Below, piece by piece: positions 10,817 to 29,753 of a stretch of 42,222 nt of DNA (the first letter of the stretch is position 1; each line of letters opens with the position of its first letter). The notes beneath the pieces were generated by a model. It saw only the letters and a program-made list of their open reading frames with translations. It made no database searches and had not been told where the DNA came from. Source of the stretch: a virus; the IMG/VR virus record IMGVR_UViG_3300039008_000002, positions 1-42,222 of that record. One strand, 5' to 3'. The translations under genes and the position numbers were made by a program.

Positions 10817-10829
10817 TAGCTATGCGTCC

Positions 10830-10841
10830 TTGCATTGATCA
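10830..10841 (-). promoter_or_regulatory. Conserved motif TGATCAATGCAA (copy a); its TGA is the primase/helicase stop
   Basis: Minus strand TGATCAATGCAAGGACGCATAG. Confidence 0.5.
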
Positions 10842-12500
10842 GAAGATGGCTTCACCGCCATCGACAGGTTCGAAGCCTGTCTCGGTGTCGCTCTTGCTCA
10901 TGGGCACCAAGCGCCCAGAGCTGTGGTCGTAGCCGAGGAGGAAGGTCTGGCCTGTGGCCTGCCCTGTCACCCGGTCCTTGAGTACGCGGAAGGTTGTGAC
11001 CGATCGCTCGCTCTCGTCCTCTGCCTGCTGGTCACGCTCCAGCCCGTACATGTGGTGGCACCAGAAGCCGATGGCTCTGGACCCCTTGAACTGACGGATG
11101 GTTACCCTGCCGCCTTCCTCGTGGGACTTACCCATGTCGGGGGTGGTGAGGTGCGAGATGATGCAGACCCAGATGTCCAGCTCTTTCACCAGACCGCCGA
11201 GCTTGCTCATGATCTTCTCCAGCTCCTTGCGTTCGTCGTCCGCTTGGGATGCGAGTGCAGTGAGGTGGTCGATGTAGAACAGCTTGACGCCTTCGTGGTG
11301 GTAGAGATACCGGATGGTCTCTTCGATCAGGTCGTAGTCAGCCGAACCGAAGTGGTCGTACATGTAGAGGTTGTCACCATTGGCCAACCGGTCCACAGCA
11401 TCGACAAGCTCCTGCGTCTCCCACGGATTTTCGTCACTCGCTGGGATGTGGAACTTGCGCCCTGCTGCCTTACCGGCGATGCGCTTGGCGGTCTCTCTCG
11501 GCTGCTGTTCGAGGAAGAACAGGCCGACCTTCTGGTTCAGGGTGTTGACATCGTACTCGATCTGCTGGGTCAGCACGTCGGTCTTGCCGATGCCGGTGCC
11601 TGCGCCGAGAGCATCAAGCTCACCGTAGCGACGACCGAAGACAGCGTTGTTCAAGCCTTCGTGGAACCACGGTAGCCCCCACTCGGGCAAGGTCATGACG
11701 TCGTCCTTGATGTCGCCCAACCGGACAACACCTTCGGGACGCCACGCCTTGGCCTCGAAGATCGCGTCGATGATCTCAGGTCCGCGCTTGGCCATGAGCA
11801 TCTCGTTCGCATCCTTGAGCGGGAGCGAGGCGATCTTGCACTTGCCGGGGCTGAACAGGCGGGCACAGCGTTGCGCTGCTTCCTTACCAGGTTCGTCCAT
11901 GTCGAACATCAGGATCACCTCGTCGGCTTTCTCCAGCCACTTGAGGTTCGCTGCGATGTCCTTGTGTGCAGACTTGGAACCGCTTGAGATGGACACTGCG
12001 GCCCAGCGGTTGCGGCCACCGGAGATGACCTCATACACAGACATGGCGTCGATCTCGCCCTCGGTGATGATCACCTTCGGCGCTGCGTCACGAGCGATGT
12101 GCTGCCCGTACAGCTGCAGCTCTTTCGTGTGCCCGATCCAAGGGAAGTCCTTGTCCTGCAGACGGATGTGCTGGGCGACGATGTCACCAGCTTGGTCGCG
12201 GTAGTTGGCAATGTGTGCTGGGTCACCGCTGTACTTGCCGACGCGGTAGTCGTAGCGTTTGCAGGTTTCTTCGGTGATGCCGCGCTTGGTGAGCGCACGG
12301 ACCTTGCCATTGCGGATCAGATCAGAGGCCATCTTGCGTCCTTTGTTGGAGGGGGGTTGGGTCTCGTCGTCCGTCGGAGGTTCGTAATGCTCACAGCCGA
12401 AGCAGTAAGCGTGACCGTCCGAGTACCGGGCGAGGTTGTCGCGGGAGCCGCACGAGGGGCACGGCTCCTTTGCTACGAACTCAGACGTGTCTTCGCTCAT
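10839..12500 (-). CDS. Primase/helicase (T7 gp4-like)
   Basis: N-terminal zinc finger CPSCGSRDNLARYSDGHAYCFGCEHY, a TOPRIM-like EGEIDAMS, and Walker A GAGTGIGKT in the DnaB-like half. Confidence 0.95.
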   Translation of the reverse strand: MSEDTSEFVAKEPCPSCGSRDNLARYSDGHAYCFGCEHYEPPTDDETQPPSNKGRKMASDLIRNGKVRALTKRGITEETCKRYDYRVGKYSGDPAHIANYRDQAGDIVAQHIRLQDKDFPWIGHTKELQLYGQHIARDAAPKVIITEGEIDAMSVYEVISGGRNRWAAVSISSGSKSAHKDIAANLKWLEKADEVILMFDMDEPGKEAAQRCARLFSPGKCKIASLPLKDANEMLMAKRGPEIIDAIFEAKAWRPEGVVRLGDIKDDVMTLPEWGLPWFHEGLNNAVFGRRYGELDALGAGTGIGKTDVLTQQIEYDVNTLNQKVGLFFLEQQPRETAKRIAGKAAGRKFHIPASDENPWETQELVDAVDRLANGDNLYMYDHFGSADYDLIEETIRYLYHHEGVKLFYIDHLTALASQADDERKELEKIMSKLGGLVKELDIWVCIISHLTTPDMGKSHEEGGRVTIRQFKGSRAIGFWCHHMYGLERDQQAEDESERSVTTFRVLKDRVTGQATGQTFLLGYDHSSGRLVPMSKSDTETGFEPVDGGEAIF

Positions 12501-16014: not shown

Positions 16015-16032
16015 GCAGGGACCTATGCCGCC

Positions 16033-16044
16033 TTGCATTGATCA
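16033..16044 (-). promoter_or_regulatory. Conserved motif TGATCAATGCAA (copy b); its TGA is the RNAP stop
   Basis: Minus strand TGATCAATGCAAGGCGGCATAG. Confidence 0.5.
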
Positions 16045-18690
16045 GGCGAAAAAGAAGTCCGACGAACGCACCTCTTCGAGATCGAGGTCGCCCTTCGCCG
16101 GGACACTGGGTACTTTCTTCTCGTCGGCCTCATCCACCTGCCGCAGGATTTGCTGACGGAAGTCGTCCAGCACGTCCAGCTCGGAGTAGAGGTTGACGAA
16201 TGCTTCACGCAGGCAAGCAGCCAACAGGTTACTGTCGGCGGCATGAGTGCCGAAGCTGTCGTGGATCATGGCAAAGCTGTCGATGCCATTCTCCGTGGCG
16301 TAGCACACGCTCATCATGAGGTGCGTTGCGTCCATCGAGTGGACGAAGTTGGGGCTGATGGCATTGGCCATACGCCGACGGTCAATGGTGTCCTGCTCGG
16401 ACGACAGCGACAGCCTGATGGTGGTCTCACCGAGCTTCGTCTTCACACGGCGGGACTTGTGGTTCTTGTACTGCTGCATGACACGGAAGCCGGTCGGTGT
16501 TGTCCAGTACACAGGCAGCTGCTCTGCTGCTACGACCTTCGCACACTTCTGGAGCCAGTCCATGGCAGCACGAGCTGCGATCACGACCTCACCAATGGCG
16601 TCCCAGATCAGGGCCGACATGTACTGCGTGGCCTTGAAGGTCTTGTCCTTCGTCCACGGCATGGTGAAGCCAGACGACAGCTGGTCACGGAGCCATTCCT
16701 CGGTGTACTCCCGGCAGCTGTACTGCGTGGAGCCGTAAGGCAGGGTCATGACCTGACGCTTGGTTGTCTTACGCGACGGCTGCAGCGACAGCCAGCCCAA
16801 GGCATAGACCTCCTCATCTGAAAGTCCCTTAGCTTCAGCTAGTTCAGCTATAGCTACAGCTGAAGAGTGGTTTTTCAGCGAGGAGTTATTCGTCTCTTCG
16901 GAAATAGCTTTAGCTATGGTGGTCCCTAATTCCCCAGCAGCCAGCTTGAGCTTGTCCATCACCTTGTCACAGACCCGTTGATAGATGTCCTCAGGGGTCT
17001 CAGCAGGCAGCAGGTTCACTGCCCGTCCACCCACGCTATCAAGCAGCATGGCCGAGAAGTGCTGGATGCCCGAGCAGCTGCCGTCGAGAGCAACAGCGAT
17101 GCGGGACATGTAGCCATAGCCCTGCTCCACGAACTCTGCCCACTCGAAGCAGAACGCGAGGAACTGCCACGGCTTGTCGGCATCGTGCCAGAAGCGACAG
17201 CCGAACGGATCGTTGGCGCACATGATGATCTCCTGCTCGTGGTCTTCAACCCAGCCGATGCGGTCCTCAAGCGAGGCCTTGTCGTAGCCGAACACGTTGG
17301 AGCCGTGGATGGCCAACCAGCCTGCGCCCACGCCGTCCTCGATAGGCTTGGCATCGGCGAACTCAAGCAGGCCCTTGGTCACGTCGTTGCCCTGCGGGTT
17401 GAACGAGGGGATGGCATACACCCGACCACGGAAGTCCAGCTGGTACGGGAAGTAGATCGCCTCAGCTTCGGCCAGCATGTCAGCCACCTTGATGGTCTTG
17501 GCGAGAGACAGACGCTTCGACCGGAGCGACACGTTGCCAGCATGTGCAGCGTACGCACGTTGCTTCCACTCACGCAGCACGTCCTCATCCTCGAAGCAAT
17601 CGTGGTCAGTGGAGCCACGGGTGTTCAGCTTAGGCAGGTCGATGGGTGCCGAGCAGCAGGGGCATGCCACATAGGCGGTGTCGTCCCGTGCCGGGAGCTT
17701 GGCCACGTCCTGACCACGTTCCCACAGCTCGACGAGGGTCTCCCGCACACGCGGGTTGATGCGCCAGCGGGTGGACTGCAGCGCGTTGATGGACTGGTAG
17801 ACCATGGGCATGTCCTCTGCGTGGTCGGCCAGCTCGGTGAGGTAGTTCCGGTTGCCGGTCTTGACCATGTTGTTTCGGGACTGCGCATCCTGGGTAAGGT
17901 AGCCACCGTTGTACGGGTCCGTCCAATCGAGAGGCTTCACGATCATCGGCATGTAGGCAGGCGACAGCAGCTCAGTGCGGGCAACCTCCTTCTCGATCCA
18001 CTCGACCAGCTTGGTGGTGGGCTGCAGTACCTTGACGGTATCGCGGCGGGTGTTCACCTCGTCAGCCACCTCGATCAGCCCGGTCTGGGTGATCATGTTG
18101 ACCAATGCCGAACCCACCTGCAGGCAGTCGTCCTCAGGCCATGCGTTCCACTCGGTCTCGTTGAAGCGGCGGTCATAGCCAGCCATGGTAGCCTTGCGGC
18201 GGTGGTAGGCGGTGGCCTTCCCTGCCCGGTCCAATGCCCGGTCATACATCTTGCCCTCGTTCTCCTTGAACTGAGCGAAGCGGACCTCGTCTTCGATGCG
18301 CTTGCCGATGTTGACACACACACGCTGCATCAGCTGCTTCTTGCCGGTCAGGCTGTCCACGACCACACGCATAGCGATGAACCCGGCCACGTCAGGCTCG
18401 ACCTGTTCGAGGTACTTGATGGCGACGTGACGGCGACCAGCCTTGGCTTTGCCTTGAGTGATGAAGCCGGTGATTGCCTCGGCCAGCTTGTCGATGGACA
18501 TGGCGACCAGCGTCTTACCGTAGCCGGTGCCGCTCTCGTTCCCGCGCTGACGTGCAGCCTCGATCTGCTTCCTGATCTGGTCACGGCCAATGCTGACCAT
18601 GCGTTCTTCCAGTGCGATCTCAGCGGCCAGCATTTCATCTCCATATGTTGCGGACAGCTCGTTGATCGGGCGGCGAAGGGTGGTTTCCAT
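16042..18690 (-). CDS. Single-subunit DNA-directed RNA polymerase (T7 gp1-like)
   Basis: 882 aa. Contains ALDGSCSGIQHFSAMLLDSVGGRAVNLLP, MIHDSFGTHAADS, ISPNFVHSMDATH and a C-terminal SSDFFFA (T7 has DFAFA). Confidence 0.97.
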   Translation of the reverse strand: METTLRRPINELSATYGDEMLAAEIALEERMVSIGRDQIRKQIEAARQRGNESGTGYGKTLVAMSIDKLAEAITGFITQGKAKAGRRHVAIKYLEQVEPDVAGFIAMRVVVDSLTGKKQLMQRVCVNIGKRIEDEVRFAQFKENEGKMYDRALDRAGKATAYHRRKATMAGYDRRFNETEWNAWPEDDCLQVGSALVNMITQTGLIEVADEVNTRRDTVKVLQPTTKLVEWIEKEVARTELLSPAYMPMIVKPLDWTDPYNGGYLTQDAQSRNNMVKTGNRNYLTELADHAEDMPMVYQSINALQSTRWRINPRVRETLVELWERGQDVAKLPARDDTAYVACPCCSAPIDLPKLNTRGSTDHDCFEDEDVLREWKQRAYAAHAGNVSLRSKRLSLAKTIKVADMLAEAEAIYFPYQLDFRGRVYAIPSFNPQGNDVTKGLLEFADAKPIEDGVGAGWLAIHGSNVFGYDKASLEDRIGWVEDHEQEIIMCANDPFGCRFWHDADKPWQFLAFCFEWAEFVEQGYGYMSRIAVALDGSCSGIQHFSAMLLDSVGGRAVNLLPAETPEDIYQRVCDKVMDKLKLAAGELGTTIAKAISEETNNSSLKNHSSAVAIAELAEAKGLSDEEVYALGWLSLQPSRKTTKRQVMTLPYGSTQYSCREYTEEWLRDQLSSGFTMPWTKDKTFKATQYMSALIWDAIGEVVIAARAAMDWLQKCAKVVAAEQLPVYWTTPTGFRVMQQYKNHKSRRVKTKLGETTIRLSLSSEQDTIDRRRMANAISPNFVHSMDATHLMMSVCYATENGIDSFAMIHDSFGTHAADSNLLAACLREAFVNLYSELDVLDDFRQQILRQVDEADEKKVPSVPAKGDLDLEEVRSSDFFFA
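16843..16864. promoter_or_regulatory. 22-bp near-palindrome (20/22) inside the RNAP ORF, ~55 nt downstream of the internal promoter
   Basis: Plus strand ttcagctatagctacagctgaa against its reverse complement ttcagctgtagctatagctgaa. Confidence 0.4.
16916..16931 (-). promoter_or_regulatory. Phage-RNAP promoter core inside the RNAP ORF
   Basis: Minus strand GGGGAATTAGGGACCACCATAGCTAAAGC, read in frame as GELGTTIAKA. The 16-nt core matches perfectly. Confidence 0.6.
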
Positions 18691-18705
18691 GGGTGCAATT
18701 CCTCG

Positions 18706-18718
18706 TGTTGCGGCAACA
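18706..18718. promoter_or_regulatory. Perfect 13-bp palindrome TGTTGC-G-GCAACA, 2 nt upstream of the RNAP Shine-Dalgarno
   Basis: Plus strand tgttgcggcaaca. Adjacent inverted repeat GCAACAG-TTGTTG-CTGTTGC at 18713-18732. Operator-like. Confidence 0.5.
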
Positions 18719-18766
18719 GTTGTTGCTGTTGCACATCATCTAATGCCACCCTGCATAGGTGGCGCG

Positions 18767-18797
18767 AAAAGAAAAACCCAACGCCTAAGCGTCAGGT
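18767..18797 (-). terminator. Intrinsic terminator between tRNA-Leu and the RNAP gene
   Basis: Minus strand ACCTGACGC-TTAG-GCGTTGGGT-TTTTCTTTTCG. 9-bp stem, tetraloop and U-run. Its last nt lies 76 nt upstream of the RNAP ATG. Confidence 0.7.
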
Positions 18798-19071
18798 TTT
18801 ACTGATGTTTCAGGGAGTGATGCCAGTGTGCATTGGCGGCGGACGAGAACCTAAATCTAATTCAGCCGCTTCTTCAAACCTGTAAGCTATTGATTTCTCA
18901 ACAACTTCTTCTCACTCCTACGTTGCAAACACTGCCTGTTTCGGCAACATCTGCAACAGCTTCTGCAACAAAATCCCAAGAGGGAAACTGCTGCGTTCCG
19001 CAGGTAGACACACGTCCATTGGCGCATCTACCAAATCTACCAGACACCCATCGTGTTGCCGATGTTGCGGC

Positions 19072-19156
19072 TGGTGCGGGCGGAGGGACTTGAACCCCCA
19101 CGCCTTGCGGCGGCTGGACCTAAACCAACTGCGTCTACCAATTTCGCCACGCCCGC
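19072..19156 (-). tRNA. tRNA-Leu, anticodon UAG, class II (long variable arm), CCA encoded
   Basis: Minus strand GCGGGCG-TG-GCGA-AATTGGTAGA-CGC-A-GTTGG-TTTAGGT-CCAGC-CGCCGCAAGGCGT-GGGGG-TTCAAGT-CCCTC-CGCCCGC-ACCA. Perfect 7-bp acceptor stem, 5-bp anticodon stem (one G-U), variable-arm hairpin CGCC/GGCG. Confidence 0.9.
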
Positions 19157-19218
19157 ATCGAGGCGAGGTGATAGCGCGGTCGCATGGTGTTGGCAAGTGT
19201 GCATCGGACGCCGGAGTA

Positions 19219-19234
19219 ATGGTGGTCCCTAATT
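19219..19234 (-). promoter_or_regulatory. Phage-RNAP promoter core upstream of tRNA-Leu
   Basis: Minus strand GAGAATTAGGGACCACCATTACTCC. Lies ~60 nt upstream of the tRNA 5' end and overlaps the stop codon of the 68-aa gene. Confidence 0.75.
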
Positions 19235-19435
19235 CTCCAGAGCGTAATCAACAGCCCTCTTCCGTGCTGCCCAGCCTGCGTTGAAGGCGTCACGGGCTTG
19301 CTGTTCCCAGCAATCGCCCCGCAGAGGGCCGTTGGTCTGTGCTGTTCGCCACGTGGCGAACGCGGCGTCCCGTTTCTCGTACTGCCCGGTCGGCACCACA
19401 CCGTGCGGGATTTCGTCAGTGTATTGGTAAGCCAT
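19229..19435 (-). CDS. Hypothetical protein (68 aa) downstream of int
   Basis: AAGGA RBS. Its last codon and stop (AAT TAG) are supplied by the promoter at 19219-19234. Confidence 0.5.
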   Translation of the reverse strand: MAYQYTDEIPHGVVPTGQYEKRDAAFATWRTAQTNGPLRGDCWEQQARDAFNAGWAARKRAVDYALEN

Positions 19436-19438
19436 CTC

Positions 19439-20476
19439 TTATCCTTCCAATGCTTTGACTGCGTTCATCAGGTCCTGCGGATACAGGTGCGAGTAACGCA
19501 TGGTGGTTGCGATGTTCGAGTGCCCGAGCCAAGCCTGCACGACAGGCAGGGAGACACCCTTCTGCACCAGCCGCGAGGCTGTGGTGTGACGGCAGACGTG
19601 GAGCGTGAAGTCCTTGTCCTCGGTCAGGTTCATGTGGGCACGTGCCTTGTCCCAAGCGTGGCGCATCTCTGCCTCACCCAGGTTGAAGCACCTGCTTCCC
19701 ATGGTGCGACGTTCCATGATGGACGCCACGCGCTTGGTCATAGGCACCGACCTGATCTTGCCGTTCTTCGTACCCTTGCCTTCCTTCCCGTAGACCATGA
19801 TCACACCAGTGGTGAGGTCCACGTCTGTCGGGCGCAGGTTGAGCAGCTCACCCCGACGCATGCCGGTGTCGATCAAGACCATCACGGCCTCGCCCATGTC
19901 GTCAGCCCCGACGTTGAAGAACCACGTGAGCAGCACGTCTTCTTCCTGCCTGCTGATCTGGCGGATGCGACCGACCGGCTCCTTGCGCTGTCGTGGCAGC
20001 TTGAGCGGGACCTCAAGACCACCGTAGTCGTACGCCACCTTGGCCATCTTCGAGAGAGCCGACCGCTTCCTGTTGATGGTGCTGTCGCTGTTCCCTCGGG
20101 TCTCGCAGTCATGCAACCATGCATCAATCCGGTCACGAGAAAGCTCTGCCAACTTGGTGTTGGGTCCGAAGAATGTGATCGCGTCCTGTGCGTTGAGCGT
20201 GGCCTGCTTCTCGTAGCTGATGCCTCGCCACCCCTCAGGCTTGGGCAGGGACAGCAGCTTGTCGAGCGCCTGCTGTAGCGTCCAGCCTACGGCATTGGCC
20301 CGCACCTGTCGGACCTCCTTGCCTGTCTCAAGCGCCTGCTGCAGCTCATCCTTGCGGGTCATGGCCTCGACCAGCGAGGCACAGGTGGCTGTCTTGCGCT
20401 TGCCGTTCACCGTCACATCGACGAAGAACTTCTCGCCGCGCATGCGGATGCCTCGTGGTAGGTTCAATGCGTTCAT
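19439..20476 (-). CDS. int: Tyrosine recombinase / phage integrase
   Basis: 345 aa. Catalytic-type signature: RRGELLNLRPTDVDL (Arg), HVCRHTTASRL (HxxR), WLGHSNIATTMRYSHL (His...Tyr). Confidence 0.9.
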   Translation of the reverse strand: MNALNLPRGIRMRGEKFFVDVTVNGKRKTATCASLVEAMTRKDELQQALETGKEVRQVRANAVGWTLQQALDKLLSLPKPEGWRGISYEKQATLNAQDAITFFGPNTKLAELSRDRIDAWLHDCETRGNSDSTINRKRSALSKMAKVAYDYGGLEVPLKLPRQRKEPVGRIRQISRQEEDVLLTWFFNVGADDMGEAVMVLIDTGMRRGELLNLRPTDVDLTTGVIMVYGKEGKGTKNGKIRSVPMTKRVASIMERRTMGSRCFNLGEAEMRHAWDKARAHMNLTEDKDFTLHVCRHTTASRLVQKGVSLPVVQAWLGHSNIATTMRYSHLYPQDLMNAVKALEG

Positions 20477-20488
20477 GTCTTATCCCTT

Positions 20489-20824
20489 TCACTCCATCAG
20501 TTGTTCGATCTCAGCCAGCACGGTTGCTCCTTTCTTGGTCAGCTGGCAGCGGACCCGGCGTGGGTCCTCGTGGTCAGGCACCATCTCGATCCAGTCGAGC
20601 GGATGCTTATGTCCCCGCAATGGCTTCTCGCCCAAGTGAGCGAGGATGCGGGCGACGGTGGATTGGTTGAGACCTGTTGATGTCACGATGTCTCGAACCA
20701 GTACGCCTTCCCGTGCCCCCTTACGTGCCACGATGAGCAGCACTTGGAGCCGGGTCAGGGTCATCTCCCTGTCGTACTTGAGAAGGTGTGTACTAACCCT
20801 CAGTAAATTCGCAGTTCCTTTCAT
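20489..20824 (-). CDS. MarR-family winged-helix transcriptional regulator (candidate repressor)
   Basis: Start MKGTANLL with an AAGGAGAGG RBS. LTRLQVLLIVARKG...VLVRDIVTSTGLNQSTVARILAHLGEKPL...DPRRVRCQLTKKG is a typical MarR wHTH plus wing. Confidence 0.7.
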   Translation of the reverse strand: MKGTANLLRVSTHLLKYDREMTLTRLQVLLIVARKGAREGVLVRDIVTSTGLNQSTVARILAHLGEKPLRGHKHPLDWIEMVPDHEDPRRVRCQLTKKGATVLAEIEQLME

Positions 20825-20855
20825 TGATCCTCTCCTTTTTCCTTCCTGCTGCACT

Positions 20856-20985
20856 GGTAACGTACAATGCCAATCTGCCTAGATCGAGGCAAATCTCCTC
20901 CCGGCCTGTACATGTGATAGCAGGACGCTTCCATGCAAGGAAGCGAATATAAGTTACCGTAACGTCAAGCATCCCCGGTAACGTG
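20856..20985. promoter_or_regulatory. Three CGTTAC-containing sites upstream of the MarR gene (candidate operators)
   Basis: GGTAACGTAC (20856-20865), the palindrome-containing GTTACCGTAACGTC (20953-20966, GTTAC-C-GTAAC) and GGTAACGTG (20977-20985). A CTTGAC box overlaps the middle site on the minus strand. Confidence 0.35.
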
Positions 20986-21139
20986 AGTGGTCGCCACGCT
21001 TTCATTCGTTATTGTTTCCTTCACCAGCAGCTAGTGGTGCTGCTCCTGTTGCGCGTTTTGTGAGTGTGTCCTGACCCGTCTGCCTACTTTTTGTGCAGAG
21101 TGTGAACACTAGGTGACGGGTCAATACTAGACCAATCGG

Positions 21140-21292
21140 TCAGCTTTCAAGGGCAATCTGGGAGAGTATCTGCCTGACCCGACGTGCGCCTACGTAATGC
21201 CGCTTTTCGCCTCTGATCCGCCGCGCTCGTGCCAGTTTCCTGACATGGTTCTCAACTGCGGGTGGTGTTGCCTTCCTGTAGATGCCAGCCAT
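21140..21292 (-). CDS. Small basic 50-aa protein, hypothetical
   Basis: Internal ATG (MAGIYRKATPP...) with GGGGGAG upstream. Arg-rich. It is the last gene before the MarR control region. Confidence 0.4.
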   Translation of the reverse strand: MAGIYRKATPPAVENHVRKLARARRIRGEKRHYVGARRVRQILSQIALES

Positions 21293-21297
21293 GGTAA

Positions 21298-21801
21298 TCA
21301 CTCCCCCAGACGTTCGCGCAGCAGGCATAGCGGGTATGCGTTGACGGCATAAATACCCTCGGCTTCCAGCACAGACGGTGCGTCCACCTTGACGACCTCG
21401 ATCCCCCTCTCGTTCGCCCGGTGCTTACACCAGAAGCCATCCCGCAGTGTGGCCTCGGGGTCCCACAGGTCAGCCTGCAGTGCCCACGGGTTGTAGCGGG
21501 CGAGGTAGCCCAGCACGGTCTCGTAGTCCTGCGGGCAGCGGCTGATGTACTCCATGCGTGTCGCGTCGGTGACGGTGTCGCACTCGACCCAATCGGAGCT
21601 GTCCACATCCTGGGTATCGTCCTCTTCCAGCGCCTCGGTGATCCATGCCATGCAGGTGGTGATCTCATCCCACTGGCGGTCGTAGTCGCGGTCCCCCTCG
21701 GGCAGTAGGTCCTCGCGGACAGCGCCAAGCGCCTGCCAAATGACCTCAAGGGCCTGCGTGGTGTCGAAGCTCGTGGCTCGTGCGGTGATGATCTGGTTCA
21801 T
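21298..21801 (-). CDS. Strongly acidic 167-aa early protein, hypothetical
   Basis: Internal start MNQIITARA. By my count ~33 Asp+Glu against ~14 Arg+Lys. Confidence 0.55.
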   Translation of the reverse strand: MNQIITARATSFDTTQALEVIWQALGAVREDLLPEGDRDYDRQWDEITTCMAWITEALEEDDTQDVDSSDWVECDTVTDATRMEYISRCPQDYETVLGYLARYNPWALQADLWDPEATLRDGFWCKHRANERGIEVVKVDAPSVLEAEGIYAVNAYPLCLLRERLGE

Positions 21802-21811
21802 GTGTTCTCTC

Positions 21812-22492
21812 CTATGCTGCGATTGCGTTGAGCTGTTGCGAGGCGTAGCTGCCCCACTGCTTGGCCATGGCCTTTGCCATGCCGGGGAAGAAGCGGCTGC
21901 GTTCGGTGGCGCGATCCTCGCCCGGTGTCGCGAAGTGGACGCTGTTGCGGGCTGTGGTCCCATCGACCTTGCCGGTCGGCACCAGCTTGGGCAGACCACG
22001 GCACCAGAAGCCGGTGCGTTTCTTCTCGTTGTCGATGCTGTCCTCGGTCTCGGCGAACTGCCACGGCTGGACGTAGAAGGGCTTCACGTCGCCGAAGTTG
22101 ATGCGTTCCTTGGCGTACTTGTGCATGACCGGGTTCTCGACCGCGACGAAGGGCACGGCGTCGGTGTTCAGGCAGTAGTCGAACAGGGCAGCGCCCTCGT
22201 CCAGCTCGGCCCACATCTCGTCCAACGTCCGACCGGGCGGCGGCACCTTGAGCCAGCGCACACCGCTGTTGCAGAGGCGGGTGCAGGGCGGGTGCATCAC
22301 GAACAGCATGTCCCACTCGCCGTAGACCAGCGGGTTCTCAAGGACCTCCTGCACGGTGGCCTGAATGTGGTAATTGCTGCGGGTCTCATCGGGTTTGATG
22401 TCGCAGCTGTGGGCGTCGTGTCCCTCGGCTCTCAGGGCATCACGGACGGTGCCGCTGCATTCGCAAGCGACAAGGATGCGAAGTGGTCGCAT
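21812..22492 (-). CDS. Mini C5-cytosine-methyltransferase-like protein (226 aa)
   Basis: AGGAGAG RBS. RILVACECSGTV (motif I-like), MHPPCTRLCNSG (same spacing as the motif IV FPCQAFSISG), FVAVENPV (motif VI ENV-like), C-terminal RSRFFPGMAKAMAKQW (motif X-like). Only ~55 aa remain where a target-recognition domain would sit. Confidence 0.45.
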   Translation of the reverse strand: MRPLRILVACECSGTVRDALRAEGHDAHSCDIKPDETRSNYHIQATVQEVLENPLVYGEWDMLFVMHPPCTRLCNSGVRWLKVPPPGRTLDEMWAELDEGAALFDYCLNTDAVPFVAVENPVMHKYAKERINFGDVKPFYVQPWQFAETEDSIDNEKKRTGFWCRGLPKLVPTGKVDGTTARNSVHFATPGEDRATERSRFFPGMAKAMAKQWGSYASQQLNAIAA

Positions 22493-22569
22493 TGGTTCTC
22501 TCCTGTGTTGTGTGGAAGCTCATGCTTGGCGCATGGGATGCAGCCCCCGAGAGGGCTGACACCGATACG

Positions 22570-22914
22570 TCAGGCGCAGAGGCCGTGTGCTTCGACGATC
22601 AGCGGCTCGGCCTGCTCGGCCACCACGATCAGACCCCAGCCGGGACGGTACGTCAGGGTCACGTGTTCAGCCTTGCCAAGGTCGCCCAGAGTGGCCCCGA
22701 CAATGTCCACGATAGGACGCCCCGGCTTGCCTGCGATCTTGCGCTTGCCGTCGTCGCTGCGCTGGATCAGGAAGCCCCCGTTGATGGGCACGAGGTCCCA
22801 ATGGTTGCCGTGGTCAAGCCCTGCCTCGACCAGCAGCTTGCCCTCGATCCACAGGCGCGGTTTGCCTCGGTTCTGGCCGATCTTGCGGGTGGCGGTTTTG
22901 GTGGTGTTGGTCAT
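22570..22914 (-). CDS. AbrB/SpoVT/SymE-fold-like protein, apparently two tandem half-domains
   Basis: KPRLWIEGKLLVEAGLDHGNHWDLVPINGGFLIQR resembles the SymE/AbrB swapped-hairpin motif. A second similar unit is RPIVDIVGATLGDLGKAEHVTLTYRPGWGLIVVAE. Confidence 0.45.
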   Translation of the reverse strand: MTNTTKTATRKIGQNRGKPRLWIEGKLLVEAGLDHGNHWDLVPINGGFLIQRSDDGKRKIAGKPGRPIVDIVGATLGDLGKAEHVTLTYRPGWGLIVVAEQAEPLIVEAHGLCA

Positions 22915-22983
22915 GGGTTTTCCTTTCGTTTGGGCTTGAGTTTGTTCAGGTCCCGGTCGGACCAGTCGTCACAGGGATCACAG

Positions 22984-23091
22984 GTCAGCATCTGCGAAGA
23001 CCCATGCGGCAGCGGTTGCGAAGACCACGCAGGCAAGGACGCCAAAGCCGTGGTCATGGAAGACGAATGTCAGGAAGCCGTGCAGCGTCAT
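22984..23091 (-). CDS. 35-aa hydrophobic peptide ORF (below the track cutoff)
   Basis: MTLHGFLTFVFHDHGFGVLACVVFATAAAWVFADADL. The ATG lies 2 nt after the upstream stop. Confidence 0.3.
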
Positions 23092-23093
23092 GG

Positions 23094-23213
23094 TCAGCCC
23101 CCCATCAGCAGGGTTTTCAGCTCGGACACGGCCCAGCCGGTGATCTCGGCCAGACGGCGCAGCGTCAGGTCAGGGTTCATGTCGTACAGGTCGATGATTT
23201 GCTCAGGGGTCAT
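23094..23213 (-). CDS. 39-aa HTH-like peptide
   Basis: MTPEQIIDLYDMNPDLTLRRLAEITGWAVSELKTLLMGG. This ATG has a strong TAGGAG RBS, whereas the longer track ORF has none. Confidence 0.4.
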   Translation of the reverse strand: MTPEQIIDLYDMNPDLTLRRLAEITGWAVSELKTLLMGG

Positions 23214-23304
23214 GGTTTCAGCTCCTATGTTTGGTTGGCTCATCAGTGACCGGGACCCACCCGGCCAGACGCCCCTTGCGGAGCGTTTCGCCTTTGATGC
23301 CACG

Positions 23305-23316
23305 TTGCATTGATCA
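23305..23316 (-). promoter_or_regulatory. Conserved motif TGATCAATGCAA (copy c); its TGA is the stop of the 251-aa early gene
   Basis: Minus strand TGATCAATGCAACGTGGCATCA. Confidence 0.5.
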
Positions 23317-24069
23317 AGCCGCAACAAGTTCCTTGGCTTTGCGCTTGGCCCCGCCATGGGCCACGATTGCGACCGACTTTGCCTTGACGCTGTTGCCAGC
23401 GCAGAGACCGCATTTGTCGCACTGGACCCGCTTGCCCATTTCTTCGCTGGCAGGGCAAAGGAACTCGCGTTTCTTGTCCATGTCGGCCACGTCAGCGATC
23501 ACCCGGAATGTGCGTTCACCGCGCATCCATGCCTCTGCAGCTTGGCCCTTGCTTTCCGCACTGGTCATGTAGAGCTTGGCCGACGTGTCAGCCGATGCGA
23601 CCCCGTTCTGGTGGGTGTAGGCCGTCCAGCCCTTGGCGTCCTCGATCAGGCTTTCCCAGATGTAGCTTGGCACTGCAGCACCATCGCCATACGTGCCAAT
23701 CCGCACCATCCGGCCAGCGCCAATTGCCTTGATTGCCTCATGCCCTACCGCGTCAGGGTAGAGACCACGCTGCAAGCCTTTCCACTTCTGCAGTGGGCCA
23801 TGGGCCAAGGTGACGTAGCAGGTGCGATCTTTGGCCGTGCCCTTGTCGCCGTCATGCGCCTTACCACGGTGCGGGCAGGTGCCACAAATGGCGTGGTCTG
23901 CCCCGGTACGGTTGGCGGTGATCGGGTCCATATCGGCCCGCATGATGAAAGTCTGCACCATGCTGCCAGTCTTAGCGTTGCGGCTAGAGACTTGAGCAAT
24001 GGCGACAATCGGCTCCCCGTCAATCAGGGAAGGTCCGCGATAGATGATGAAACTCTCGGCTTTTGCCAT
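23314..24069 (-). CDS. First large early gene: Cys-rich 251-aa protein, hypothetical
   Basis: Internal start MAKAESFIIYRG with a GAGG RBS. Cys clusters CGTCPHRG...CYV and CPASEEMGKRVQCDKCGLC, and a conserved-looking RIGTYGDGAAVPSYIW...GWTAYTHQ. Confidence 0.6.
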   Translation of the reverse strand: MAKAESFIIYRGPSLIDGEPIVAIAQVSSRNAKTGSMVQTFIMRADMDPITANRTGADHAICGTCPHRGKAHDGDKGTAKDRTCYVTLAHGPLQKWKGLQRGLYPDAVGHEAIKAIGAGRMVRIGTYGDGAAVPSYIWESLIEDAKGWTAYTHQNGVASADTSAKLYMTSAESKGQAAEAWMRGERTFRVIADVADMDKKREFLCPASEEMGKRVQCDKCGLCAGNSVKAKSVAIVAHGGAKRKAKELVAA

Positions 24070-24501
24070 GGGATTTACCTCAATTTGGCTGGTGTTTCGC
24101 TGTTGCTGCAGCTCATCAGTGAACCCCGGCAGCGATGCCACGCTGCATAGGTCCAGACACCAGTTTTCGAAGGCGGCGGTGTGTGCCATTGCTCATTCTG
24201 ACGCTAACTCGACAGATAAACCCTCATCAGCCGGGGCGTTGCTACTCCCTTTCCACGTTACGTTTCAGGGCGCGTTGCCGACCGTCCTTCCCTTGTGCCA
24301 TTCTGGGGCTGTCCAGCAGGGTGGGTGTCGCTGGATCGTTGCGGCGCTGTCTGCGTCGTTTCGATGTGATGGTTATCGCCGATGCCAATCTGCATTGCAA
24401 GCACAAATTTCGCATCTACCTGCACTTTTCTTGTAAGCTACTGTTTTTCTTACGTAATCTCCTGCTATTTCTTTTACTACTGCAACAGATACCACGCCAC
24501 A

Positions 24502-24512
24502 TTGCATTGATC
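24502..24512 (-). promoter_or_regulatory. Conserved motif GATCAATGCAA (copy d), non-coding, in the early leader
   Basis: Minus strand AGATCAATGCAATGTGGCGTGG. Confidence 0.45.
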
Positions 24513-24952
24513 TCGGGTAATAGCTCGCGCGTGAGGCTGGGGCTATGGCTGTTGCGTGATTTGCAAGCACAAATGCAGAAGAAAGACAGAAGTGCAGACA
24601 AAGCGCAGCGACGTTGCAACAGCCTCGCGGTGGCCGTCACTTGGGCTGAAACTCGCGCTAATCCGTGCATGAATGGATATGGTATCTAACGCGGAACCCT
24701 GCAGAATAAGGCTTTCCCGCGCCACGATTGCAGGATTGTTGCAGGGCTGTTGCGCGGCGCATGCTTTTCCACAGGTGGGCGGCGGCTCCTTACCCCCAGG
24801 GGGGGATCGCAGCGCCAGCCTATATCGGTAAGCTGATCACATTTTTCACCCCAAAACATCTCGGGTGGTAGCCTGCGATAACCCGCACAGGCGACGGGAG
24901 ACACTGATCACCTCCTTTCAAGGGCTTTCCACGAGGAGGGGATGAAGCAGGT

Positions 24953-25115
24953 GGTCAAGCTGTTGCTACCACATAAGTGGTCAAGCTGTAGCTATTCCCT
25001 ATTGCTATGTGCCTCACGGAGGGTAGGCTGTTAAGCCTTCCCCGGAGTGAGGCGGGAGGCTTCCACGAGGAGGGGTCTGTCCCCCTAGCCATTCGCAACT
25101 GGTCAAGCTGTTGCT
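24953..25115. repeat. Three copies of GGTCAAGCTGT(T/A)GCT interleaved with two copies of TTCCACGAGGAGGGG
   Basis: 15-mers at 24953-24967, 24979-24993 and 25101-25115. Second family at 24927-24941 and 25061-25075. A 42-nt imperfect hairpin (25011-25052) lies between them. Confidence 0.75.
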
Positions 25116-25151
25116 TCTCTCTATAGGTATAGCAACGGCCCAGCATTTGCA

Positions 25152-25167
25152 ATGGTGGTCCCTAATT
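25152..25167 (-). promoter_or_regulatory. Phage-RNAP promoter core (start of the early leader, after terL)
   Basis: Minus strand AATAATTAGGGACCACCATTGCAAA. Confidence 0.75.
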
Positions 25168-25214
25168 ATTCCCTTGTTATATCAAAGGCTTAGAGACCAC
25201 CACCTCGTAAGAAC

Positions 25215-26993
25215 TTAGGCGTCAGTCCAGCTGAGGTCTTCACCGTAGTAATTCCCAGCGATTTCAATGGCTTGCTCTGGAGATGCCCCCAGTGCCAGCG
25301 CATCGAGGCTGATACCGATGTTCCCATGGAAGATTGCCAGCTCTGCATCGAGGATCATCTCCTCACGCTGCTGCATCTTCTCTTCCTCGTCCTGACCCAT
25401 CTGTTCGACCCAGTAGGCCACAGCGATGGACAGAGCGTCCACACGGTCGTCGTACGCAAGCGCACCACGGTCCTTGGTCATACGGCTGATCTGGTACATC
25501 AGCTGACGCTTCACGGCCTGCTCCGGTGGGTACTGCTTGGTCAGCTCCTGATCGCGTTGGATCACGGTAGGACAGAAGACGAGCTTGTGCTGGTTCATGA
25601 CAGGCTCAAGCGTGTCGATGATCCGCAGCTCCTTCTGCTTGTTGTGCCGCACCTCTTCCACGGACATGTTGTATCCCACCTTCTTGAGGAAGGGGGTGAA
25701 GAGGCGAGTGAACATGCCGTCACCGAAGTTGCTCTCGATGATACCCAGGTTGCACTTGTTCCGCTTGGCGATGTTTGCCAGCTCAAGCATGACCTGGTCC
25801 TCATAGCCACCCTGTAGGCCACCGGCTTCGGTGACGAACAGCTGGCCGTTGAGCATCTTCACGACAGCGTACGTGGTCTCGTCCTTGCCCCGGCCCGAGG
25901 GGTCGATAGCGATGACAGAGCCTTCGTACTTCACCCAGTCCCCGACCACGGCTGCAGGACGGTGGTAGCGGTCCCCATTGAGGCCCACACAGGCGATGTC
26001 CTCGATCCGGTAGTTCCGGTCCCCAGACCAGATGACCCTCTCAGGGGCCGTCTCAGGGTTCAGGGAGGTGACAACCAGATCACGCAGCTTGAGCGGATAC
26101 TTGTCAGCATCACTCAGGCGAGTGTCGAGCATGAACTGCAGGGCGAAGCCAGAGCGTCCATACGACAGCTCACGCTCCAGCAGGTCCTCGTCGTCGAAGC
26201 GGACGGGATCGACTGGCTCACGTTCAGCTGCACCCTTCTCCATGAGTGCCACCACAGACGGAGCGAGGCGGTCGCCATAGCTCGTAGCCAGTGCTTTGGC
26301 ATCAGGGATGCGGGAAGGCCAGATGCGGACTTCATAGCCACGGTTCGGCAGGTCGTTGTACAGGCTCTCTTCGGTCTGAGGAGTGCCGAGGTACTTCACG
26401 GTGCCACCGGGCTTGAGAACAGCATCGAACTCCTTCACACGCTCCGACAGCTTGTCGCGCATGCTCTGGGTCTCGGAGTTGTTCGGGACTTCCACGTCGT
26501 CGGCGATGATCTCATCAGCACGACCACCAGTCAGCTGGCCGAAGATGCCCACGGACTTCACCGAGGGAGAGTGGTCAGGCCGGGACGGGCCGACATCAAA
26601 GGCGATCTTCGACTGCCGTTGGTCAGCAGTAGGTTGCAGGTGCTGTAGGATTGGCATCTCGCTGATGAGACGCAGTGTGAAGGTGGAGAACTGGTCAGCC
26701 CTTTCCTTCGATGCTGAGACCACCATGATCTTCAGCTGAGGGTTCCGCAGTAGACGCCAGCAGACGTACGCTGAGGTGATCCAGCTCTTGCCGACACCAC
26801 GGAACGCTTCGATGATGAGGCGGCGTGGGCCGTGTTGCAGGTACGTGGCGATGTCCATCTGTACCCAGGTTGGCGACGGTAGAAGCAGGTGCTTCCACAC
26901 GAGGATCAGGAAGTAGCGGAAGTCCTCGAAGACACGCCAGTCCTTCTCGGGGTATTCATCACGCCACCACTTCTTGTCGTTCTCTAAGCTCAT
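25215..26993 (-). CDS. terL: Terminase large subunit (T7 gp19-like)
   Basis: Start MSLENDKKWW (GGAG RBS). Walker A-like EAFRGVGKSWITS. Size and last-gene position match T7 gene 19. Confidence 0.9.
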   Translation of the reverse strand: MSLENDKKWWRDEYPEKDWRVFEDFRYFLILVWKHLLLPSPTWVQMDIATYLQHGPRRLIIEAFRGVGKSWITSAYVCWRLLRNPQLKIMVVSASKERADQFSTFTLRLISEMPILQHLQPTADQRQSKIAFDVGPSRPDHSPSVKSVGIFGQLTGGRADEIIADDVEVPNNSETQSMRDKLSERVKEFDAVLKPGGTVKYLGTPQTEESLYNDLPNRGYEVRIWPSRIPDAKALATSYGDRLAPSVVALMEKGAAEREPVDPVRFDDEDLLERELSYGRSGFALQFMLDTRLSDADKYPLKLRDLVVTSLNPETAPERVIWSGDRNYRIEDIACVGLNGDRYHRPAAVVGDWVKYEGSVIAIDPSGRGKDETTYAVVKMLNGQLFVTEAGGLQGGYEDQVMLELANIAKRNKCNLGIIESNFGDGMFTRLFTPFLKKVGYNMSVEEVRHNKQKELRIIDTLEPVMNQHKLVFCPTVIQRDQELTKQYPPEQAVKRQLMYQISRMTKDRGALAYDDRVDALSIAVAYWVEQMGQDEEEKMQQREEMILDAELAIFHGNIGISLDALALGASPEQAIEIAGNYYGEDLSWTDA

Positions 26994-28041: not shown

Positions 28042-28470
28042 TTACACCTCGATTGTTTGGGCGATGGAGAACAGCTCGTCCATGTCAGCCGTGGACAGAG
28101 AACTGCCATCAGGCCATGTGACGTATTCAGCCAGCGCGTTGAGAAGTGGGCTTGATCGCTTGTAGGTGGAAGCCTCAGCCCAAGCGAGTTGGGTCAATGG
28201 GTCCATCGCAGCGATCAGAGCTTCGACTTGTGCAAGCAACCCCATCTGCAACAGGGCTGCTTTTGCTTGGAGGCGTGTGCAGGTCACTTCCACAACGACA
28301 GGTCCGTCGTCCACGTCAGGGACGTATGCTCCCACCGCGCCGTACTTCCCGGCCACTGCCTCATTGAAGAGAACAGGGTCGGTCCTCGGCTCGATGATCA
28401 TCACGTCGTCATCGCTGACAGTCAGCCTGATCACAGTGCCTTCATCATTCAAGTAAACTGGGTTATACAT
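28042..28470 (-). CDS. Fibre-associated protein (tail-fibre chaperone-like)
   Basis: TAATG overlap with the fibre gene. C-terminal TRLQAKAALLQMGLLAQVEALIAAMDPLTQLAWAEASTYKRSSPLLNAL resembles a helical module common next to phage fibre genes. Confidence 0.4.
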   Translation of the reverse strand: MYNPVYLNDEGTVIRLTVSDDDVMIIEPRTDPVLFNEAVAGKYGAVGAYVPDVDDGPVVVEVTCTRLQAKAALLQMGLLAQVEALIAAMDPLTQLAWAEASTYKRSSPLLNALAEYVTWPDGSSLSTADMDELFSIAQTIEV

Positions 28471-29750
28471 TACCAGCCCTCCGAGTTTGCGCCGCCGCCG
28501 AGAGGGTAGTAGTCGCTACCGTCCGTCAGGAGGCGGAAGTTCTTTATGTAGCCCGTCGTGTTGACGTAGCCCTTACCGCCGTCGAATTGGTTGCCCTTCA
28601 CGCGGGCGTAGATGCGGTCCCCCGGATAGACCGAGACCGAGGAGATCGACTTGTAATCGCCGGTCGTGGAGGTCGTGGTGAACGATTGAAGCAGGGTGTC
28701 GCTCCCGTTCCGCACACGCCGCACCTCCACCGTCGCATTGTACGAGCCATTGCTGGTTCGCAGTGCGCAGGAGATCCGCACGGTTCCTTCTTGGAGGAAG
28801 TAGAAGGAGTACCCAACCCCCCATGACCCGCTCCCACTGCGGCTAACTTCGGTGTCGTAGCGAGCGCGGACTGTCCAACCTGCAGTCAGGGTTCCAACAA
28901 CACCGTCAGCACCTGCAGCACCTGCAGGACCCTGTGCGCCAGTCGCACCTTGAGGGCCAGTCGCACCAGTAGCGCCAGCGGTCCCTTGAGGACCCTGAGG
29001 ACCAGTCGTGCCTTCCCATGTGCCGATGTTGGTGTAGGTGCCAGCACCTGTGACCTGATAGACGTTGCCGTTGGTGTGGTAGTAGATGTCCCCCACGGTC
29101 GAAGCTGTGGAGTACGCACCGACGTTGGAGCCAGTTGCGAACTTGTCACCGTCAGCACCAGCAGGGCCAGCAGGTCCAGTTGCACCTTGGGCACCAGTTG
29201 CACCTTGAGGGCCGGTCGGGCCTTGAGGGCCTGTATCACCAGTCGTACCTTGTGGGCCTTGGATACCTTGGATGCCCTGAGGCCCTTGTGTGCCCTGTGG
29301 TCCTACGAGGTCGGTAAACGCAGGCCATGCCCCGTCGGGTTCTTGGAAGCGGACAGCAGAGGTCGGAGCGTTTGTGCCATTCCCCCACTCATGGTCAGGC
29401 GCTGCACCTGTGTTGCCGACAGGGCCTTCTGGTCCGGTCACACCTTGCGGGCCTTGCAGGCCTTGGTCGCCTTGGACACCCTGAGGGCCAGTCGCACCAG
29501 TTGCACCCGTAGGGCCAGTCGCACCTTGAGGACCTGTTGCACCATCGACGCCGTCTACTCCGTCAGCACCGGCTTGTGCCATGAGCTGCCAGTAGGTGGC
29601 GTTCGAGGGAGCGATCCCTGCGGTCGTTGTGAGGATACAGACATAGCTGCTCCCTTGGTACGTCACAGCGTCGAGCGGGTTGTAGACCGTCACCGCGCTG
29701 TAAGCACCTTTCCAGCCGATACGAACTCGGCCAATGTTGAGTGTTCCCAT
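28470..29750 (-). CDS. Distal tail-fibre protein with three collagen-like G-X-Y tracts
   Basis: 426 aa. The N-terminal [34 protein letters not shown] is a carbohydrate-binding-like repeat. Three G-X-Y runs are followed by a ~150-aa non-repetitive C-terminal domain. Confidence 0.75.
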
Positions 29751-29753
29751 AGT

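Follow-up and report, generated by a model that had tools for sequence, protein, structure and literature searches.

Genes and features of the locus

We analysed a 42,222-nt stretch of viral DNA (the window; IMG/VR record IMGVR_UViG_3300039008_000002), focusing on the region ahead of its T7-type RNA polymerase (RNAP) gene, where a regulator gene of the MarR type (marR), a tyrosine integrase gene (int) and a full-length tRNA-Leu(UAG) gene are located. The phage genome has a GC content of ca 60%, all its genes are on the minus strand, and the map of open reading frames (ORFs) is collinear in the T7-like order. This single-strand arrangement, together with the RNAP domains PF00940 and PF14700, identifies a T7-like phage. 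Along the coding strand, ca 1 kb of non-coding DNA and the early genes (25215 to ~20900) are followed by marR, int, a 68-aa ORF, a phage promoter, the tRNA, 381 nt of non-coding DNA and the RNAP gene. Hence, marR is immediately 5' of int, with 12 nt between its stop codon and the int ATG, and both are 5' of the RNAP gene. The features of the region, including the putative phage attachment site (attP), are listed here in coding-strand order. L-numbers denote loci with related integrases, which were gathered from IMG/VR and from genomes and on which int, the MarR gene, the RNAP gene and the tRNAs were mapped.

20489..20824, minus strand: compact MarR-fold winged-helix regulator of 111 aa, candidate lysogeny repressor (Pfam, PHROG, AlphaFold, Foldseek)
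19439..20476, minus strand: tyrosine integrase of 345 aa (PF00589, E 1.9e-25; PHROG 1, integrase, E 9e-57)
19229..19435, minus strand: conserved 68-aa ORF between int and the tRNA (motif recurrence in relatives)
19219..19234, minus strand: phage-RNAP-type promoter motif AATTAGGGACCACCAT upstream of the tRNA (nine-copy family)
19168..19197, minus strand: candidate host sigma-70-type tRNA promoter, with CTTGCC, an 18-nt spacer and TATCAC, ending 11 nt 5' of the tRNA (by eye)
19072..19156, minus strand: full-length tRNA-Leu(UAG) with encoded CCA (ARAGORN; Rfam tRNA, 50.7 bits against a gathering threshold of 29)
18920..18975, minus strand: TGTTGC/GCAAC repeat cluster in the attP arm that faces int, which may serve as integrase arm sites or as regulator sites
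18846..18858, minus strand: putative attP core AGATTTAGGTTCT, 13 nt copied from the anticodon arm of the host tRNA-Leu(UAG) (single occurrence in the window; 0 expected by chance)
18773..18800, minus strand: intrinsic terminator between the attP core and the RNAP gene (hairpin and T-run; fold −16.8 kcal/mol, z-score −5.0)
18738..18760, minus strand: conserved box ACCTATGCAGGGTGGCATTAGAT (similar in L008, L004 and L010; partly in L011, L014 and L094)
18713..18726, minus strand: perfect palindrome GCAACA-AC-TGTTGC (GCAACAACTGTTGC), 22 nt 5' of the RNAP start codon and without a second perfect copy in the genome; candidate MarR operator
16042..18690, minus strand: T7-type single-subunit RNAP of 882 aa (PF00940, E 9e-115; PF14700)

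A sequence-only reading of the window had already named the MarR-type gene, the integrase, the tRNA-Leu(UAG) with CCA, the promoter and the terminator, and all of these were recovered on the minus strand at or next to the positions it gave. The distance from int to the tRNA, put there at 280 nt, was measured to be 282 nt (283 nt if counted from the final stop-codon base to the first tRNA base), and this gap is filled by the 68-aa ORF. The phage promoter under which the tRNA was said to lie corresponds to AATTAGGGACCACCAT at 19234..19219, and the terminator, placed at 18767-18797, was found as a hairpin at 18800..18773.

In an alignment of 41 homologous integrase sequences, residues R207, K237, R296, H319 and Y328 do not vary, and H293 is conserved to at least 90%. 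Catalytic roles were assigned by reading the alignment against XerC-like and XerA structures, with which the motif stretches of the integrase align, and the catalytic domain of the HP1 integrase (1aih) is also a sequence match (E 2.6e-11). As judged from its sequence, the C-terminal domain carries the complete catalytic R-K-H-x-x-R-H/W-Y set and the integrase appears to be intact. The disruption of catalytic residues, which had been named beforehand as a finding that would speak against an active module, is not seen in the alignment.

The 68-aa ORF has no Pfam or PHROG match. By eye, its motif QYEKRDAAF...AFNAGWxAR recurs in an ORF located just 5' of the tRNA or attachment site in L001 and L002. 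We infer only a candidate role for it, as an excision cofactor.

Attachment site

The 13-mer AGATTTAGGTTCT lies in the gap between the tRNA and the RNAP gene, 215 nt 3' of the former and 45 nt 5' of the terminator, and the sequence that follows it is not tRNA-like. It thus provides, in the int–RNAP intergenic region, a match to part of a host tRNA gene. Integrase homologues with 55–69% identity to that of the window sit in long bacterial contigs, and in these the same 13-mer constitutes the phage–host junction, at the left prophage end (attL) in L008 and L171 and at the right end (attR) in L001, L002 and L032.

On the attR side of L001 (Epibacterium sp. MM17-32), tail/terminase genes, early genes, a MarR homologue, int, small ORFs and a promoter-like motif lead up to a complete tRNA-Leu(UAG). 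This intact phage tRNA is followed by ca 120 nt of phage DNA, partly conserved with the window (TTTGTTGCnGAnGCTGTTGCAGATGTTGC), and at the junction only the 3' half of a second tRNA-Leu(UAG), that of the host, is present. It starts with CCAGATTTAGGTTCTGG and is followed by host genes. L032, from a Rhizobiales genome, has a full tRNA and then a tRNA 3' half in the same way. At the opposite end, the attL of L008, a Pseudomonadota metagenome-assembled genome (MAG), consists of the 5' half of the host tRNA-Leu(UAG), ending in ...CCAGATTTAGGTTCT, then non-tRNA DNA, the terminator, the conserved box and the RNAP start codon. In L171 (Roseicyclus), the host 5' half ends in AGATTTAGGTTCT and is followed by non-tRNA DNA, a terminator-like element and the palindrome. 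ARAGORN detected no tRNA at the attL of L008 or L171, and at the attL of these two loci and of L004 only the 5' half is found, i.e. no tRNA is rebuilt.

These junctions, together with the uniqueness of the 13-mer in the window, lead us to assign the attP core to the anticodon-arm copy rather than to the phage tRNA gene. The sequence-only reading had supposed that attP might lie inside the full-length phage tRNA, in which case integration would give two complete hybrid tRNA genes, one at each prophage end. In favour of this, tRNA-targeting integrases mostly act on a partial tRNA copy carried by the phage, and between the phage tRNA and the host tRNA-Leu(UAG) the 7-nt anticodon loop is the same, as is much of the 3' half. 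However, the Epibacterium prophage has window-conserved phage DNA between its tRNA and the host junction, and no hybrid gene is formed at the three attL sites. Furthermore, none of the five pairs of the phage anticodon stem (GTTGG/CCAGC) is that of the host (CCAGA/TCTGG), in contrast to the 13-mer at 18858..18846, which is an exact host match. Being recoded in this stem, the phage tRNA is not itself a copy of the attachment site. An attP within the tRNA is thus already contradicted for the relatives, and for the phage of the window we consider it very improbable.

Our interpretation, to which we assign a probability of roughly 75%, is that a temperate T7-like (Autographiviridae) phage has its lysogeny and integration module in this region, that the 13-nt core is attP, and that the phage tRNA substitutes for the host gene that is split upon integration. 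The closest integrated relatives are found in marine Alphaproteobacteria of the Rhodobacterales type. In this mechanism, recombination by the integrase would take place between the core and the corresponding anticodon arm in the host gene for tRNA-Leu(UAG). As no tRNA 3' half follows the core in the phage, the host gene would be left split, with its 5' half at attL and its 3' half at attR, and the full-length phage tRNA, now beside attR, would take over its function. The intact integration cassette and the host tRNA-Leu(UAG) gene as its target, both part of the sequence-only reading, agree with what the relatives' junctions show.

Role of the phage tRNA

Integration would split the host tRNA without rebuilding it, and the full-length phage tRNA is therefore best read as a replacement copy. 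Its minimum-free-energy fold is a class II cloverleaf with a long variable-arm hairpin, a leucine anticodon and the 3' CCA. A comparison with host tRNA-Leu genes, as had been suggested, was made using the host halves in L008 and L001. The variable arm is identical, and the differences in the acceptor and anticodon stems are compensatory, such that the structure is preserved.

Further evidence comes from 16 loci that have the order int, tRNA-Leu, RNAP. In 11 of these, the short gap 5' of the RNAP gene contains a second, exact copy of the 7-nt anticodon loop found in the carried tRNA, usually ca 11 nt 3' of this tRNA, and a near match is present in a twelfth. In all 12, the anticodon of this mimic is that of the carried tRNA, be it UAG, UAA or CAA, while the flanks of the mimic do not match the anticodon stem of that tRNA. 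Such covariation of the isoacceptor with the core is predicted by a replacement role but not by codon supply.

Another option considered was that the tRNA is a passenger acquired by imprecise excision, or a codon-supply gene for lytic growth, and not a replacement. Capture by imprecise excision is the origin proposed for the tRNAs of LUZ100 and of pelagiphages (PMC10134795). Also in line with this option are the phage promoter upstream of the tRNA and the codon usage, CUA being 2–3 times more frequent in the phage than in small candidate-host samples. However, CUA is still rare, with 34 of 11,662 phage codons (3.8% of the leucine codons of the phage, compared to 0–2% in the small samples of candidate-host genes). 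The option also leaves aside the isoacceptor match in 12 of the 16 loci and the structure-preserving changes in the stems, and an origin by capture is in any case compatible with a present use as replacement. We therefore judge it unlikely; codon supply as the main reason for the tRNA is ranked low.

For the replacement to work, the phage tRNA would have to be expressed and needed in lysogens. Two promoters can be proposed. The motif AATTAGGGACCACCAT belongs to a family of nine copies within two mismatches, all on the minus (coding) strand, where 0.01 are expected by chance. The candidate host-type promoter is proposed because of its conserved geometry as seen by eye: CTTGCN, 18 nt, TAnnAn and then 9–11 nt to the tRNA, which is shared with L001 and L010. 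A strict sigma-70 scan of 18500-25300 gave no promoter.

Search for integrated copies and the case against lysogeny

A number of results weigh against the interpretation given above. No integrated copy of this exact phage was found, and all 100%-identical contigs (exact RNAP copies) are unintegrated. Samples containing the phage include SRR21418665, SRR21418658 and JGI 3300045498. The junctions predicted for it are ...GGTAGACGCACC-AGATTTAGGTTCT-CGTCCGCCGCCAATGC at attL and ...GCGGCTGAATT-AGATTTAGGTTCT-GGCGCCGCAAGGCG at attR. The corresponding 23-mers are absent from the Joint Genome Institute (JGI) metagenome contigs, and IMG/VR does not contain the attP/attL arm. The junctions used as evidence are those of relatives whose integrases are only 55–69% identical. 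The host anticodon-arm 25-mer is very widespread and says little about the identity of the host, which is therefore inferred only from the integration hosts of the relatives. Moreover, a second solution exists in the clade. Namely, the MAG prophage L002 and a Pseudovibrio prophage (L004, L006) carry a tRNA 5' half beside the core, and the complete gene is rebuilt at attR, which means that the replacement design is not universal. The somewhat higher frequency of CUA in the phage than in the candidate-host samples would be consistent with a secondary translational benefit of the tRNA. Finally, T7-like cyanophages integrate at tRNA-Leu without forming stable lysogens (PMC8776855).

The last point bears on the possibility that the phage is effectively lytic, with integration being a rare and transient event that does not lead to stable lysogeny. 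The absence of integrated copies from the contig collections would fit this, and there is the experimental precedent of the cyanophages (PMC8776855) as well as that of LUZ100, for which no stable lysogens were obtained (PMC10134795). However, the relatives are integrated in isolate genomes and in a MAG, with phage genes in the flanks. In addition, the clade has, unlike the cyanophages, a conserved regulator and an operator-like palindrome, and the catalytic residues of the integrase are all in place. An effectively lytic lifestyle is thus a possibility to which we give little weight. As to the integrated copies in bacterial genomes that the sequence-only reading had called for, they are lacking for the phage itself but exist for its relatives, which sit at tRNA-Leu and for which attL and attR could be defined.

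Other searches gave little. An exact look-up of the integrase found nothing on record, and a near-identity DNA search of GenBank phages brought up no close relative, its matches being limited to a short one in RNAP and one in a tRNA. A search of genome contigs with the integrase alignment gave one close match. Its 7.5-kb contig is assigned to a MAG labelled Bacteroidetes but may be a phage contig that was binned wrongly. The remaining matches are distant (ca 35% identity), many of them with a tRNA-Ser(GCU) within ca 2.5 kb, and the Epibacterium and Pseudovibrio prophages were not recovered by this search.

It should be noted that the assemblies of the phage and of its closest relative break near the tRNA. 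The European Nucleotide Archive (ENA) contig L172 (41,630 bp; integrase 93–94% identical) ends 245 nt 3' of int, before any tRNA, and the Logan contig L175 starts inside the tRNA 3' half. A probable cause is the near identity of the tRNA 3' half with host tRNA genes, and integrated copies could be hidden by such breaks.

Prophage topology

At the attL of the related prophages, the first gene is that of the RNAP, preceded by the host tRNA promoter and 5' half, the terminator and the palindrome (L008 and L004; the island L171, discussed below, has the same elements preceding a MarR–int pair). The opposite end, beside attR, carries the early genes, marR and int (L001, L002 and L006). Both ends are present on one contig in the Pseudovibrio isolate and in a MAG, the flanks read containing genes for RNAP, replication, tail and terminase; for the Epibacterium isolate only the int-side end was read. 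The domain assignments for T7-type replication, tail and terminase functions refer to these related prophage loci and not to ORFs of the window. The prediction of the sequence-only reading that recombination takes place between int and the tRNA on one side and the RNAP gene on the other, leaving the latter behind the host tRNA promoter, is thus borne out in the related prophages.

For the phage of the window, were it to integrate in the same way, the RNAP gene would come to lie at one prophage end, and the early promoters, marR, int and the phage promoter at 19234..19219 at the other. The RNAP gene would then be located behind a truncated host tRNA, the terminator and the palindrome, which likely is a MarR operator. 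The terminator is well conserved, with the hairpin and T-run kept at the same place in eight relatives and compensatory changes in five pairs. Among the relatives, it is followed by a box resembling ACCTATGCAGGnTGGCATTAGAT and then by the palindrome before the RNAP gene.

If this topology holds, integration would sever both feeds of the RNAP gene that come from the int side of attP, namely the read-through from the early operon and the promoter at 19234..19219, i.e. a would-be positive feedback of the RNAP on its own gene. A prophage-borne tRNA would furthermore make any loss other than precise excision costly for the host, and thereby act as an addiction-like stabiliser. The cassette of MarR gene, int, core, terminator and operator, shared with the type I restriction island L171, may also be portable as an integration and regulation module. 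That integration is a large part of the switch, that the host depends on the prophage tRNA and that the cassette can move in this way is a tentative proposal, which we consider rather doubtful as a whole. The sequence-only reading proposed the cut itself as a mechanism that would silence the lytic programme. The conserved operator-like palindrome before the RNAP gene suggests that active repression is used in addition to the topological cut.

The arrangement of promoters varies between the relatives. In L094, L011 and the Pseudovibrio prophage, a phage-type promoter is on the RNAP side of the core or overlaps it. In L094 (5400-5425) and L011 (5010-5035), the attP core is embedded in promoter-like sequence (AGATTTAGGTTCCACCATTAC, cf. 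promoters such as AATTGAGTTCCACCATTGC), and as a consequence of this overlap with the anticodon-arm copy the promoter would be rebuilt at attL after integration.

Regulator and candidate operators

The ORF of the regulator begins, if taken mechanically, at a GTG at 20854. The likely start is the ATG at 20824, after AGGAGAGG, which was picked by eye and coincides with the gene end given in the sequence-only reading. The protein is matched by Pfam HTH_27 with 25.4 bits (cut-off 22.2), by MarR_2 with 22.9 bits, which is below the cut-off of 27, and by PHROG 9665 (transcriptional regulator) with E 4.6e-17. The AlphaFold (AF2) model has a predicted local distance difference test (pLDDT) score of 92.3 and the topology H-H-H-H-E-E-H. 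All 50 listed fold matches of the model in the PDB, obtained with Foldseek, belong to the MarR family (MexR, MarR, MepR, SlyA), with template-modelling (TM) scores of 0.52–0.71 when normalised to the query and 0.39–0.64 when normalised to the target. With its 111 aa, the regulator spans about half to two thirds of these targets, the full MarR architecture being ca 140 aa with a dimerisation helix bundle. The model thus predicts a MarR fold, with a winged-helix core and flanking helices. A marR homologue is directly 5' of int in all close relatives.

Regarding the operator, the motif GCAACA-N1-2-TGTTGC occurs at the same position as in the window, just 5' of the ribosome-binding site, in L008, L010, L014, L094 and L004. 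It is also present directly 5' of marR in the island L171, which fits an autoregulated repressor and leads us to favour the palindrome at 18726..18713 as the likely operator to which the MarR-type repressor would bind. The surrounding 300 nt (18973..18674) contain seven TGTTGC/GCAACA hexamers, compared to 0.38 expected, and a second cluster is found ahead of the early genes, in the non-coding region 24770..24471. A repeat block similar to that at 18920..18975 is located at the same position in L001, L002 and L006.

The sequence-only reading had instead sought the operators upstream of marR. A palindrome is indeed present there, at 20945..20926, but it is conserved no further than the closest relative (87% identical) and is for this reason not favoured as the operator.

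Observations on related loci

The island L171 (5400-12731; Roseicyclus sp. MAG chromosome CP180348.1) has a MarR–int pair, with an integrase 62% identical to that of the window, at the same split tRNA-Leu(UAG) site. It has the same core, a terminator-like element and the GCAACAAATGTTGC palindrome, after which come type I restriction–modification genes (HsdM, HsdS, HsdR) and not phage genes. The same cassette is thus used by a non-phage island.

A host neighbourhood of YjeF, P-II, GlnA, HODM-like and M24 peptidase genes flanks attR in L001 (12291-20562) and attL in L008 (2475-9548) and L171 (1113-5169). Since it is on opposite sides of the attachment site, the tRNA-Leu(UAG) gene must be inverted relative to these genes between the genomes.

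In Pseudovibrio ascidiaceicola (L004 9726-9769 versus L006 11303-11387), the tRNA-Leu(UAA) at attR pairs A5 with T68, while the host 5' half at attL has T5. The original host tRNA would, with the present 3' half, have a U–U mismatch, for which a later mutation, gene conversion or a different history are possible explanations.

Comparison with known systems

Classical tRNA-targeting elements carry the 3' part of the tRNA, and the gene is rebuilt at the int-proximal end. In the anticodon-loop class of tRNA-targeting integrases, e.g. that of HP1, the crossover reportedly takes place in the anticodon arm of the tRNA. What differs from HP1 here is that the element carries a whole spare tRNA or a 5' half, and that the displaced host 3' half lies beside int.

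The closest match in layout is found among the HTVC019P-type pelagiphages, which have a MarR gene and int 5' of the RNAP gene and all of whose attP sites are in the int–RNAP gap (Zhao et al., bioRxiv 10.1101/410191). In HTVC011P and HTVC025P, a tRNA-Leu(TAG) is located between int and the RNAP gene, the host tRNA is disrupted, and the phage tRNA is 'likely used instead', while other pelagiphages rebuild the host tRNA from a phage 5' part (10.1101/410191). Environmental attR reads of pelagiphages contain int, an intact tRNA-Leu and the 3' end of a tRNA-Leu (10.1101/410191). The combination of MarR and int, an attP between int and the RNAP gene, and replacement of the host tRNA-Leu by a phage copy is thus already known from these phages, and the window resembles HTVC025P and HTVC011P in all these respects, including the full tRNA-Leu(TAG) 3' of int and the presumed disruption of the host tRNA. 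The differences are that the integrases and the MarR proteins are only ca 30% identical, that the window genome has 60% GC, that the nearest integrated relatives are in Rhodobacterales-type hosts and not in SAR11, that the core of the window is 215 nt from the tRNA, and that a phage promoter lies 5' of the tRNA.

In LUZ100, marR and int are co-transcribed, a phage promoter is 5' of the RNAP gene, and a tRNA-Leu lies beside int (PMC10134795). The same paper credits Boeckman et al. 2022, on the Agrobacterium phage Pasto, with a model in which MarR represses the RNAP gene through sites near its promoter, and a further paper gives a like summary of that work. The window shares with LUZ100 and, as far as the papers citing it describe, with Pasto a MarR-like gene directly 5' of int, and the repression model would apply to it as well. 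LUZ100 differs in that its integrase is 37% identical to that of the window and its tRNA-Leu is upstream of int. A further difference from LUZ100 and Pasto is that the phage promoter of the window lies on the int side of attP, and would therefore be separated from the RNAP gene on integration.

The annotated order MarR, integrase, RNAP is also found in other Autographiviridae of Alphaproteobacteria, namely the Roseobacter CRP phages (e.g. CRP-171, OR420737) and the Rhizobium phage RHEph01. However, their integrases are 29–32% identical to that of the window, and CRP-171 has a 247-nt int–RNAP gap without an annotated tRNA. The statement of the sequence-only reading that no maintenance repressor is known for int-carrying T7-like phages accordingly has to be narrowed. 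It remains correct for the cyanophages, where no repressor was found (PMC8776855), but MarR genes accompany int in the pelagiphages, RHEph01, the CRP roseophages and LUZ100/Pasto.

Since the layout has been described before for temperate T7-like marine phages, the window represents a new example and not a new kind of system. What it adds to the evidence for temperate T7-like phages is a high-GC example from a different host lineage, which is of relevance for marine phage ecology and for assumptions made in phage therapy. It also suggests a rule for locating the attachment sites of uncultured T7-like phages, namely to look between int and the RNAP gene for a short stretch that copies a tRNA-Leu anticodon arm and is of the same isoacceptor as any carried tRNA. 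In addition, it offers regulatory parts that can be tested: the 14-bp palindrome before the RNAP gene, the conserved terminator and the promoter that integration would detach from the RNAP gene.

Other features of the genome

The first and last 141 nt of the window (1-141 and 42082-42222) are identical, which gives a unit of 42,081 bp. On the map they lie within the late-gene end, not where the ends of a T7-type genome would be expected, and we read them as the assembly overlap of a circular or permuted (terminally redundant) contig rather than as a physical terminal repeat. The terminase gene and the first early gene are separated by ca 1 kb of non-coding DNA (24200-25215), probably the genome-end and early-promoter region. 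In it are found a phage promoter motif (25167..25152), GCAACAGCTTGACCA in three copies and the TGTTGC/GCAACA hexamer cluster mentioned above.

The type II hammerhead ribozyme model (Rfam RF02276) has a full-length match at 23229-23293 on the minus strand, with 47.2 bits against a gathering threshold of 37. Full-length RF02276 matches are also found in L172 (3483-3548 and 4209-4271), L094 (1076-1144) and L001 (7605-7682). All are situated in the early gene region, both in this phage and three relatives and in the integrated Epibacterium prophage, and may reflect self-cleavage of early transcripts. Adjoining the hammerhead is one copy of a five-copy motif family, roughly GATCAATGCAAnGnGGC on the coding strand (10824-10851, 16027-16054, 18745-18772, 23299-23326 and 24496-24523). 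Another copy lies just 3' of the RNAP stop codon, and one overlaps the conserved box 5' of the RNAP gene.

Two further coding regions can be mentioned. The ORF at 21812-22492 in the early region matches PHROG 757 (DNA methyltransferase, E 2.7e-50) and has no Pfam match; it possibly has an anti-restriction function. At 28470-30827, two adjoining ORFs (426 and 357 aa) are rich in 9-nt-periodic repeats typical of collagen-like Gly-X-Y tracts, and probably encode tail-fibre proteins.

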